Shown in pieces: positions 22,101-25,645 of a DNA stretch of 64,000 nt. The stretch lies in assembly GCA_964016885.1 (NCBI GenBank), contig OZ024742.1, positions 118,606,001 to 118,670,000 of the forward strand. Direction: 5' to 3'. The first letter of the stretch is position 1. Every line of letters begins with the position of its first letter. A program made the translations under genes and the position numbers. Source of the DNA: Eledone cirrhosa (lineage: Eukaryota). Under the pieces are notes generated by a model. That model ran no database searches. It was not told the origin of the DNA and saw nothing but the letters and a program-made list of their open reading frames with translations.

Positions 22101-22972
22101 CTAACACATTTTCTCTCATTCTCCTCCTCTCTCTCTCTCCCATACACACTCACTCACTCTCTCTCCCTCTCTCTCCCTCACCTCTCAATCTCTAAACTCT
22201 CTCTTGCTCTCTCTCACTCACTCATTCTTTCTATGTACTGACTCGTCTAATGCTAAGAAACGCACCGAAAACCTATATATATATATATATATATTGTTAT
22301 ACTTTGGGAGGGTCATGTTGCCAATAAGAAACACACGCACCAGTTGCTTTCACTTCAATTTATTATAATAAATTTATAAATTTAGGAATTTATAAATTTC
22401 CGGTTGGTTGGTTGGTTCCACAACCAGATGGTTATTTATATATTGTCAAAGTTCTTTCGTCACACATTCTCTGACCTCTTCAGTGACTGGGGATTCTTTT
22501 CTTTGTTTTTGTGCCTCTCCTTTGTTCTGTCCTGCGCCATCTTGTTTCTGTGTGTGTGTTGTGTGCTCAGTCTGCGCATGCGCCACATCCGGGTGTCTGT
22601 GTGTGTTTATATTCGTTTATTTATTTGTTTATTTACATGTTACTGGCTGGTTGTTTGTTCTATGTGTGTGTGTGTTTTCATTTTGTCCTTAATTGTAAGT
22701 TGTGATGTTGCTGTTCCACTCATGTTTTCTATTTAATTTTGGTTGTAATTCTTTTATGTTTATTGCCTCTGTGATTTGTCTAAAGATTGCGTCTTTTCTG
22801 TGTGTAGATTCTATTTTTATTTCTATGTTCTCTAATTTACCCTTATGTTCTATTTTAGCATGTTGGTAGAGTACAGATGATTCTTTACTATCTTGAAGGT
22901 CTCGCCAGTGTTCATTTATCCGTTCCCCTACACTACGAGCTGTCTCACCTATGTACACTATATTTTTATCTC

Positions 22973-23396
22973 AACACTTATTAGCAAGACATACCCTTTT
23001 CAAAGACCCCCCTGTATAGATAAGAAATGTATAACCTGTAAATTAAGCCCCCATATTAACTGTAAAACTAGAAATGTAGTATATAGCATAAGATGTACTG
23101 AAGGACAATGTAGAGATAAAAATATAGTATACATAGGTGAGACAGCTCGTAGTGTAGGGGAACGGATAAATGAACACTGGCGAGACCTTCAAGATAGTAA
23201 AGAATCATCTGTACTCTACCAACATGCTAAAATAGAACATAAGGGTAAATTAGAGAACATAGAAATAAAAATAGAATCTACACACAGAAAAAACGCAATC
23301 TTTAGACAAATCACAGAGGCAATAAACATAAAAGAATTACAACCAAAATTAAATAGAAAACATGAGTGGAACAGCAACATCACAACTTACAATTAA
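22973..23396 (+). pseudogene. Penelope GIY-YIG endonuclease domain (C-terminal fragment of the ORF, open frame)
   Basis: PCIDKKCITC..NCKTRNVVYSIRC..C..VYIGETARSVGERINEH..RQITEAINI..LNRKHEWN. Mirror copy at 22689-22958 (-). Confidence 0.9.
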
Positions 23397-23598
23397 GGAC
23401 AAAATGAAAACACACACGCACATAGAACAAACAACCAACCACTAACATGTAAATAAACAAATATATAAACGAATATAAACACACACAGACACCCGGATGT
23501 GGCGCATGCGCAGACTGAGCACACAACACACACACAGAAACAAGATGGCGTAGGACAGAACAAAGGAGACGCACAAAAATCAAAGAAAAGAATCCCCA

Positions 23599-23641
23599 GT
23601 CACTGAAGAGGTCACAGAATGTGTGACGAAAGAACTTTGAC
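23599..23641 (+). ncRNA. Minimal type I hammerhead-like motif of the Penelope pLTR (copies at 22445-22487 - and 34118-34160 -)
   Basis: GTCA-CTGAAGA-g-GTCACA gaatg TGTGAC-GAAA-G aa C-TT-TGAC. Confidence 0.65.
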
Positions 23642-23857
23642 AATATATAAACAACCATCTGGTTGTGGAACCAACCAACCGGAAATTTATAAATTCCTAA
23701 ATTTATAAATTTATTATAATAAATTGAAGTGAAAGCAACTGGTGCGTGTGTTTCTTATTGGCAAGATGACCCTCCCAAAGTATAACAATATCAGTTTCAA
23801 CACACGTTTTCAGATAAAGAATCTTGCTAAACAAATTCAGAAACGATATATATATAT

Positions 23858-24616
23858 ATATATATGAATGTATATATAGTGTATTTTGCAATACACTGTA
23901 TGCTTAATTAAAAGCATTTCGAAGACTTTACGCTATTGTTTTAGAGTAGTGACAGTCTCACTTACTTTAAATGTTCAGCAAACAGGGGAGATAAAGCTGA
24001 CAGAGCTCTGTTTCGCACTTTTTGGTGCTTATCAAAGCTAACTACTCCGCCTGTTTGCTGAAAATCATGAATGTTTGATTCTTATAGAATTCTAGTAATA
24101 ATCAGGAACTGATTATACAGAGCGGTTGCCGGTCAAGCAGAAATTGTAAATTAGAATTGGTGCTCTGAAATAGCGATATATATATGAATGTATATATAGT
24201 GTATTTTGCAATAATATTATGCTTTTAATTAAGCTCTGTATAATCAGTTCCTGATTATTACTAGAATTCTATAAGAATCAAACATTCATGATTTTCAGCA
24301 AACAGGTGGAGTAGTTAGCTTTAATAAGCACGAAAAAGTGCGAAACAGAGCTCTGTCAGCTTTATCTCCTCTGTTTGCTGAAAATTTAAAGTAAGTGAGA
24401 TTGTCACTACTCTAAAACAATAACATAAGGTTTTCGAAATGCTTGCAAAATACACTATATATACATTCATATATATATCGCTATTTCAGAGCACCAATTC
24501 TAATTTTCAATTTCTGCTTGACCGGCAACCGCTCTGTATAATCAGTTCCTGATTATTACTAGAATTCTATAAGAATCAAACATTCAGCAAACAGGTGGAG
24601 TAGTTAGCTTTGATAA
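23858..24616. mobile_element. Retrozyme-like ~300 nt HHR-bearing repeat: about 1.1 units on - followed by about 1.3 units on +
   Basis: Direct repeats at 23858/24177 and 24234/24532. 24234-24616 is the reverse complement of the preceding block. HHR motifs at 23995-24039 (-), 24317-24361 (+) and 24606-24616 (+, truncated). Confidence 0.8.
23976..24060 (-). ncRNA. Type I hammerhead ribozyme, U3:A8 core variant
   Basis: AGCT-TTGATAA-GCAC caaaaa GTGC-GAAA-CAGAGCTCTG-TC-AGCT, with extended stem I CAGCAAACAGG.GGAG / CTCC.CTGTTTGCTG. Confidence 0.8.
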
Positions 24617-24681
24617 CATTTACACAATTAGGTACAAAATCAAAATTAGAAGAAAAAATGTACATAAACGTACCAAAATTA

Positions 24682-24767
24682 TGTTTCTACCCGCGGAGGT
24701 TTCATTCGCTTTTTGGAAATATCCGATCATGGATAAATCAACGAGTTTCGAAATCATCAGGAAACAA
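24682..24767 (-). ncRNA. Type I hammerhead ribozyme-like motif
   Basis: TGTTTC-CTGATGA-tTTCG...CGAAt-GAAA-CC tccgcg GG-TA-GAAACA. Confidence 0.6.
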
Positions 24768-25053
24768 ACTTTAGCCTCGTTTAATTGATTTTTTGTGTGG
24801 TTGATTATGCTGATTGGGAGAGGAAATACTGTATATATTTTATCAAGTGATTCTATGGACTTACTTTCTTATATATTGCTCTGATTGTTGATTATTTAAT
24901 TAATTAATTCGTCATTGAGCCACACCTTGAATGGTTGCCAAAAACATATATATATATGGCTCTGTCTAGTTTATGTATATGTAAACCTATATATTTTATA
25001 TATATATATATATATATAATATAAGATCAAAAGATGGTTAAAGGAGTTCCAAG

Positions 25054-25124
25054 TATTTTATTATGCGCATTTCAAAAACAAATATCATCATGGGATGATA
25101 TCTGCGTTCTCATCAGATAAAATA
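25054..25124 (-). ncRNA. Type I hammerhead ribozyme within an ~80 bp inverted repeat (25017-25097 / 25186-25266)
   Basis: TATTTTAT-CTGATGA-16 bp stem II-GAAA-TGCGCA-TA-ATAAAATA, with palindromic stem III ATGCGCAT. Confidence 0.8.
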
Positions 25125-25587
25125 GGGAGACATGATATGAAGCTTAAAAAACACTTGTGAGCAGTGAAGTTTTAAATCAACATATATCCCATGATGATAT
25201 TTGTTTTTGAAATGCGCATAATAAAATACTTGGAACTCTTTTAACCATCTTTTGATCTTATATTATTTATACTCCAGTCCTACAAACTGTAGAGTGCTAC
25301 TTATCCGATATTTTCATTGCTTTATTGTGGTACAATAAAACTCACCTCCTACATATATATATACATATATATATATATATATATATATATATATATATAT
25401 ATATATATATATATATATATAATATATATATATATATATATATATATATATATATATATATATATATATATATATATATATATATATATATATAACAAAG
25501 AGGGTGTGGTAAGATACCAGGTGGACCATAACGCACCAGAGTACCAGAGTACTTAGGGTAGTAGAGTGGGTAATAGGAAAAGAGTCG

Positions 25588-25645
25588 GGACCCCGACGGC
25601 TGAACTCCGCCGTTTCGACAGCTAGATCCGAAAACGGATCTAGCT
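25588..25645 (-). ncRNA. 3' half of a hammerhead ribozyme (CUGANGA missing)
   Basis: AGCTAGATCCG tttt CGGATCTAGCT-gtc-GAAA-CGGC ggagttca GCCG-TC, truncated by a microsatellite. Confidence 0.5.

Follow-up and report, generated by a model that had tools for sequence, protein, structure and literature searches.

Five unrelated hammerhead-bearing insertions at a (TA)n tract in a 5'UTR intron of an Eledone cirrhosa SLC6 gene

The sequence analysed here is a 64-kb window of the Eledone cirrhosa genome (positions 118,606,001 to 118,670,000 of contig OZ024742.1, assembly GCA_964016885.1), in which a 3.4-kb island of hammerhead ribozyme motifs (22291-25645) precedes the coding region of an SLC6 gene. 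The island very probably represents five unrelated hammerhead-bearing insertions, pasted successively into one (TA)n tract by the enzymes of Penelope-like elements (PLEs). When compared with copies from other parts of the genome, it divides fully into five insertions, designated A to E from left to right.

Motifs and insertions of the island

Complete motifs were called with a type I hammerhead descriptor, with 300 dinucleotide shuffles as the null. The island contains five such motifs against none in the 300 shuffles, with cores at 22483(-), 23603(+), 24035(-), 24760(-) and 25116(-), and the whole window contains eight against a shuffle mean of 0.3. In each of the five, a core (CUGANGA or its U3-A8 variant), GAAA and NUH are combined with stems I-III arranged as in type I. 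The island also has one G5A copy, one truncated copy and one half motif; the full set of type I features is incomplete in the G5A copy, the truncated copy of B, the plus arm of D and the half motif of E. The permuted order of type SGC (PMC10085705) was not seen, all full cores of the island lying in type I motifs; no dedicated SGC descriptor was run. Other core-like words in the island were listed and have no assigned partner. The sites named in the original prediction at 22445/23599, 23995/24317, 24682 and 25054 were all recovered by the descriptor or by alignment, that at 24317 as the G5A copy. An Rfam scan of the window gave no match at the gathering score; below it, both copies of B match Hammerhead_HH9 weakly (E 0.0014 and 0.32).

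The five families share only the core, as had been proposed: each of their pairwise scores is reached by 12-96 of 100 shuffles. The proposed inverted arrangement is likewise borne out by a fold-back (inverted) arm in every insertion, only ~12 nt long in E. The inverted arms of the island measure 86-480 nt with 95-99% complementarity; they point tail-out and end in TA, with the B/C junction as the exception. Separation by (TA)n tracts thus stands for three of the four neighbouring pairs and fails at this junction (24616/24621), where TA is absent. Island copies are 93-98% identical to dispersed members of their families.

Insertion A

Insertion A represents the terminal part of an autonomous PLE that belongs to an abundant, young family. 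A (TA)n tract (22274-22294) marks the 3' end of its left arm. This inverted, 5'-truncated arm (22291-22976, minus strand; inverted repeats I1, I4 and I5) carries the end of a GIY-YIG open reading frame (ORF) and a pseudo-long terminal repeat (pLTR), and is 97% identical to a full-length copy (L284). The forward arm (23006-23846, plus strand) comprises the C-terminus of the GIY-YIG endonuclease (PF01541, E 8e-5), with its stop at 23396 and a CX4CxxC linker before it, followed by the pLTR and the tail, and its (TA)n tract (23845-23865) is common to the 3' ends of A and B. Each arm contains a minimal type I hammerhead. The copy at 23599-23641(+) is sense to SLC6 and intact, with a 4-bp stem I, a bulged G, a 6-bp stem II, a 2-bp stem III and a predicted cut after 23637; the antisense copy at 22445-22487(-) has one change in stem II that leaves four contiguous pairs. 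The 2-bp stem III of the sense copy was considered as damage and rejected, a short stem III being the family norm.

A 38-mer of the sense ribozyme has 5,483 exact matches in the genome, and 150 scored copies of the family are 95-100% identical. Two copies contain ORFs, of 995 and 868 amino acids (aa), in which reverse-transcriptase motifs, the CX4CxxC linker and CCHH are present. The longer contains YVDD and DKSG motifs and CIDKKCITC, then CITC...H...H, which correspond to the CX4CxxC linker and CCHH. RVT_1 is detected in one of the two ORFs at E 4e-4, below the cut-off, and a PDB search with the endonuclease returned a single weak match (1mk0_A, E 0.14). The family thus has the features of an endonuclease-positive (EN+) PLE, namely a single ORF with reverse transcriptase (RT) and C-terminal GIY-YIG, a pLTR hammerhead, 5' truncation, an inverted arm and a tail. 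By the definitions of PMC8557442, in which Neptune has a CX2-5CxxC linker plus CCHH and Nematis shares a linker finger, the motifs of A fit Neptune rather than Penelope/Poseidon or Hydra.

Insertions B and C

B and C have the structure of non-LTR retrozymes, in which non-coding units that bear a type I hammerhead follow one another head to tail. The left arm of B (23856-24232, minus strand) represents slightly over one ~320-nt unit. Its canonical-like type I hammerhead (23975-24062, minus strand) has an extended stem I with an internal loop, a predicted cut at 23999 and a U3-A8 core (TTGATAA at 24035), a variant described in PMC4209133. Alignment of the right arm (24233-24616, plus strand) identifies the G5A motif (core 24321-24327), a unit junction and a third motif cut short, which ends after the core TTGATAA (24610-24616). 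C (24621-25002) belongs to a family with a ~700-nt unit. Its minus arm (24621-24770) contains a type I hammerhead with a long stem II (24682-24766, minus strand; core 24760, predicted cut at 24688), and its plus arm (24766-25002) has TA at the end. Both 3' ends are missing from the B/C junction along with the TA, from which we infer a later deletion.

Direct repeats of 301-340 nt occur in 16 of 30 B loci and repeats of 695-706 nt in 9 of 30 C loci, both sets including the window's own locus and overlapping loci. First-look candidates number 1179 for B, 1338 for C, 30 for D and 3272 for E, figures that are not copy numbers. The 'active' retrozyme of Li et al., with two consecutive units that have complete motifs, is not represented by B or C at the island, because the plus arm of B has G5A and truncated motifs and C has one motif. 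The island's B and C are dead or partial copies of retrozyme-like families.

Insertions D and E

D (25009-25354) consists of a minus arm (25009-25185) with a full motif and a plus arm (25178-25354) with the 3' half only. The type I hammerhead of D (25054-25124, minus strand; core 25116, predicted cut at 25062) has an 8-bp stem I that includes AATAAA and a palindromic stem III, ATGCGCAT. A (TA)71 tract (25353-25494) is common to the 3' ends of D and E. No unit repeat was found for D or E in 3-kb loci.

E (25496-25645, minus strand) comprises the 3' half of a long-stem-II hammerhead and a tail, with a body at 25496-25632 and a short fold-back hairpin at its end. The half motif contains GAAA, stem III, GUC and the 3' strand of stem I. 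As predicted for position 25588, it is half of a true hammerhead: the whole motif, of type I with a long stem II, is visible in full E copies (loci L101/L007). The hairpin at 25611-25645 was also considered as stem II and rejected, as it is the fold-back junction. A genome-wide pattern for a standard core directly before this hairpin gave 0 matches; the full copies, found later, have a different core. Among E-type arms in the fetched loci, a core match lies within 110 nt upstream in 7 of 126. E copies (25611-25645; L092-L120) nearly always truncate and fold back within ~30 nt, inside the long stem II, a rate that is inflated by the choice of the top 30 loci with a query containing the hairpin. 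The hairpin itself may set off the fold-back while reverse transcription is under way.

With their fold-backs and TA-anchored ends, D and E fit a PLE or a retrozyme parent alike, and both could be 3' ends of Hydra-clade PLEs. At locus L089, a degraded coding stretch lies beside a partial D copy, upstream of the D match, and contains a CNLC..EK-like motif that we take to be a PLE endonuclease end. This stretch may be a neighbour rather than the D parent.

Targeting of (TA)n and formation of the island

The role of (TA)n as a landing pad for PLE-type elements, suggested by the original prediction, is supported by a sample of the genome. In a background sample of sixty evenly spaced 10-kb stretches (600 kb), 35 of 39 motifs lie within 300 nt of (TA)5, as compared with 33% of random positions. 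The 3' ends of the families also run into TA; for D, 54 of 58 ends are at (TA)4, compared with 6.7% of random positions. B, C and D each have two preferred 3' ends, and those of A fall at two sites ~55 nt apart. The two are 30 nt apart in B, where one accounts for 17 and the other for 19 of the 82 alignment ends (35 more reach the end of the reference); they account for 21 and 16 of 58 ends in C and 30 and 22 of 58 in D. These pairs match the two reverse-transcription start sites from which the PLE tail arises (PMC11167929). Inverted arms, a (TA)n bias and the CX2-5CxxC linker have all been described for PLEs (PMC8557442). Many family 3' ends fall within AT-alternating stretches of the element itself. 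This suggests short pairing of the element end with nicked TA, which is no more than a lead because the anole enzyme starts without homology.

Together with the observed family structure, TA ends and fold-backs, nick, start and fold-back steps taken from the PLE literature give the following account. A PLE endonuclease would repeatedly nick the (TA)n tract, and reverse transcription of its own or of parasitic RNAs would start at one of two internal sites. Copying would then stop early and fold back to give two tail-out arms, and the TA left on both sides of each insertion would keep the tract open to further elements. The ribozymes would work for the RNA of the elements themselves and not for the SLC6 gene, by cutting tandem precursors and possibly by producing circles for B and C; the minimal motifs of A and D would cut poorly unless dimerised.

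Several points weigh against this account, in which the steps of the enzymes, their sequence in time, the cleavage and the circles are inferred. Insertion order and target-site duplications are unreadable inside TA. Mobilisation of B to E by PLEs is deduced from structure, because the flanks fetched for D and E contain no coding parent (no recognisable ORF up to 900 nt upstream). The clade assigned to A is a reading of its motifs. When folded at minimum energy, A, B and C do not form the full three-way junction, and fold z-scores are ~0 for A and C; they are -7.3 for the B motif and -3.3 for the D motif.

Abundance of hammerheads in the genome

The idea that the island is exceptional or specific to its gene is not upheld. 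The 39 motifs of the background sample, against 2-3 in shuffles, extrapolate with wide error to roughly 180,000 motifs in 3.0 Gb, or about one per 15 kb. In 160 regions (1.55 Mb) we counted 104 motifs, which together with the window's eight group into 35 clusters, of which 16 are repeated. Four families fall within 3.4 kb in one of the 160 regions, and three families do so in two, where a uniform null gives means of 0.03 regions with at least four families and 0.65 with at least three. Co-occurrence of the five island families is only modestly above background, with another family in 28 of 107 3-kb loci (13 own or duplicate loci dropped) as against any family in 31 of 180 tiles. The island stands at the top of a common pattern, at ~20 times the mean density and probably with hundreds to thousands of equals, and is itself what PLE activity targeted to (TA)n ordinarily produces.

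Evenly sampled DNA and a myosin intron contain other multi-family clusters (L142:915-3941, L127:3086-7740 and L190:5211-7893). A myosin intron also harbors five antisense hammerheads at 310-nt spacing with an inverted sense copy (L212:5008-6975), a retrozyme-like multimer of another family. A literature search covering neither supplements nor most subscription journals found hammerheads of octopus, and strand bias of intronic hammerheads, treated in no paper; the supplements of PMC8557442 may list cephalopod families.

The host SLC6 gene

The splice acceptor placed at 27333 by the original prediction is correct, as AG ends there. The exon that follows (27334-27785, plus strand) encodes part of an SLC6 (SNF family, PF00209) protein, with the ATG at 27438. 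One spliced contig of run X2, a run taken as RNA solely on account of this contig, joins 27333-27785 to 28803-29093 and includes 78 further 5' letters. Because these letters have a single match in the genome, located 11 kb before the window, the island lies in a 38,336-nt intron of the 5' untranslated region (5'UTR) of the SNF/SLC6 gene on the basis of this one contig, in agreement with the earlier proposal. The upstream non-coding exon ends at G000:C3:118594997; it is followed by a GT donor and has an in-frame stop just upstream. Short upstream ATG frames also occur in this exon (L181:1459-1531), with stops ahead of the splice junction or just past it.

Two further hammerheads lie antisense in SLC6 introns, a D-related motif in the 5'UTR intron at 1933-1989(-) and a family A motif in a later intron at 34118-34160(-). 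A 7.9-kb degenerate (TA)n array (35294-43195) extends into an assembly gap, inside or behind the gene. Further downstream, a 645-aa Pro/Ser-rich open frame has no Pfam match (49603-51540, plus strand), and its end presumably resembles the pre-LIM region of Ajuba/LIMD1/zyxin-type proteins.

Strand of hammerheads in introns

The strand of hammerheads was scored in 23 intervals (947.5 kb) that lie between exons for myosin heads or ion channels, the strand of these exons being known; the intervals may hide nested genes. All motifs taken together number 41 antisense versus 24 sense (p=0.046), and insertions 22 antisense only, 9 sense only and 14 both (p=0.029). In a filtered set, from which single-member clusters and one uncertain 40-kb interval were dropped after the data had been seen, motifs are 39:21 and insertions 20 antisense, 6 sense and 14 both (p=0.009). 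A modest antisense excess in introns is probably real.

One extension of the successive-insertion account, which we consider possible though unlikely, is that intact sense hammerheads cut the host pre-mRNA, are purged from introns and so shaped the island. It would explain the direction of the counts above, and family E, whose copies are almost all without the core, is unbiased (14:14), which agrees with selection on cleavage. Of the eight motifs in the SLC6 unit seven are antisense, with a likely false positive among them, and Xenopus introns are depleted in retrozymes (bioRxiv 10.64898/2026.07.22.740005). However, an intact sense motif is retained in 20 of 40 intronic insertions of the filtered set, where the count per gene is 6:2 (p=0.29), and the myosin set alone gives 24:17 (p=0.35). 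Insertions without an intact motif lean the same way (17:11; intact versus broken, Fisher p=0.25, arm-level p=0.22-0.41), and the excess is found in short-stem-III, dimer-type motifs (17:4) and not in monomer-type ones (3:2), both being crude classes. Motif density in genes equals the background (0.069 versus 0.065 per kb). A ribozyme-free, abundant short interspersed element (SINE; family of window positions 26133-26270, scored in intervals L184-L283) is skewed too, with 119 copies in the gene-relative orientation of the window copy versus 77 (p=0.003). The selection against sense copies that had been postulated is favored weakly, though independently, by the 20:6:14 split in introns of other genes and opposed by the intact copies that persist there.

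The island itself contains four intact antisense motifs and one intact sense motif. The description of its sense copies as compromised applies to the G5A and truncated copies of B, and a core change also occurs in 6 of 37 B motifs elsewhere in the genome. It does not apply to A: the sense motif of A is unmutated, is the common form of the family and has a better stem II than the antisense copy, which leaves the local case weaker than had been claimed. The intact sense copy may be tolerated because minimal motifs showed no activity in vitro as monomers (PMC4209133). A mild loss of intact sense copies from introns is possible, as a side effect.

The antisense excess could also be real and arise from insertion mechanics, with transcription exposing one TA strand, or from selection on other features of the elements, for example promoters or poly(A) signals, which we rate a little lower still. 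Intronic motifs are not depleted overall, broken copies lean antisense as well, and the D motif contains AATAAA in its stem I; on the other hand, the unbiased E insertions speak against this explanation, and the sample is small. Co-option of the cluster to regulate SLC6, through cleavage of antisense transcripts or double-stranded RNA from the inverted arms, is very improbable: the cluster is inside the transcription unit and its arms would form long hairpins in the pre-mRNA, but the copies are young and similar clusters occur in evenly sampled DNA and a myosin intron.

Successive insertion into (TA)n thus remains the preferred reading of the island, and scale and strand are what could matter beyond it. 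About one motif per 15 kb would permit a selection-based test given gene annotation, and the small strand sample leans in the predicted direction. The proposition is that, among ~180,000 motifs of at least 16 families, many of them intronic, purifying selection removes intact sense copies about threefold; we think it doubtful. If it were true, the genome would be a natural mass assay of ribozyme activity in vivo, and strand depletion family by family would allow minimal PLE hammerheads to be ranked by whether they cut pre-mRNA, singly or as dimers. The question whether minimal PLE hammerheads are active in cells would thereby be settled; such motifs have low activity in vitro, and none as monomers (PMC4209133), and no reads ending at the cleavage site are reported for the anole element (PMC11167929).

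Comparison with known systems

All parts of the island match kinds of element that have been described. The B motif resembles Rfam Hammerhead_HH9 (RF02275) in the internal loop of its stem I and in the loop that closes stem II (26.8 bits, E 0.0014). HH9 is a conserved single-copy intronic ribozyme, whereas B is a young mobile repeat that scores far below the gathering score of 52.

B and C share with animal non-LTR retrozymes (Cervera and de la Pena 2020, PMC7229834; Li, Clavereau and Pollet 2026, bioRxiv 10.64898/2026.07.22.740005) a non-coding, AT-rich, head-to-tail organization with one type I hammerhead, and their ~320 and ~700 nt are within the reported ranges of 150-450 and 51-972 bp. 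The second of these sources describes retrozymes as non-autonomous PLE sequences depleted from introns. In contrast to retrozymes, insertions of B and C mostly consist of one or two units and a fold-back arm and end in (TA)n with no readable target-site duplication; B has the U3-A8 core, and both are known here from sequence. Hydra-clade PLEs have canonical hammerheads and (TA)n insertion, as seen here, but lack or modify CCHH, DKSG and CX4CxxC (PMC8557442); A has all three, and for this reason is not assigned to Hydra.

Neptune-type EN+ PLEs (Craig et al. 2021, PMC8557442; PMC4209133) are the closest match to A, which has RT, CX4CxxC, CCHH and, at the C-terminus, GIY-YIG in one ORF, a minimal type I motif with a bulged base before stem II and a short stem III, as well as 5' truncation, an inverted arm, a tail and a microsatellite target. 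Hammerheads in PLE pLTRs, including minimal and U3-A8 motifs and pairs on opposite strands, were described by Cervera and de la Pena (2014, PMC4209133). Abundance differs: as compared, by different counting methods, with Xenopus (~9,000 minimal motifs) and giant squid (235 Rfam hits; PMC6962438), this genome holds 5,483 exact copies of one motif and, by extrapolation, ~180,000 motifs of all families.

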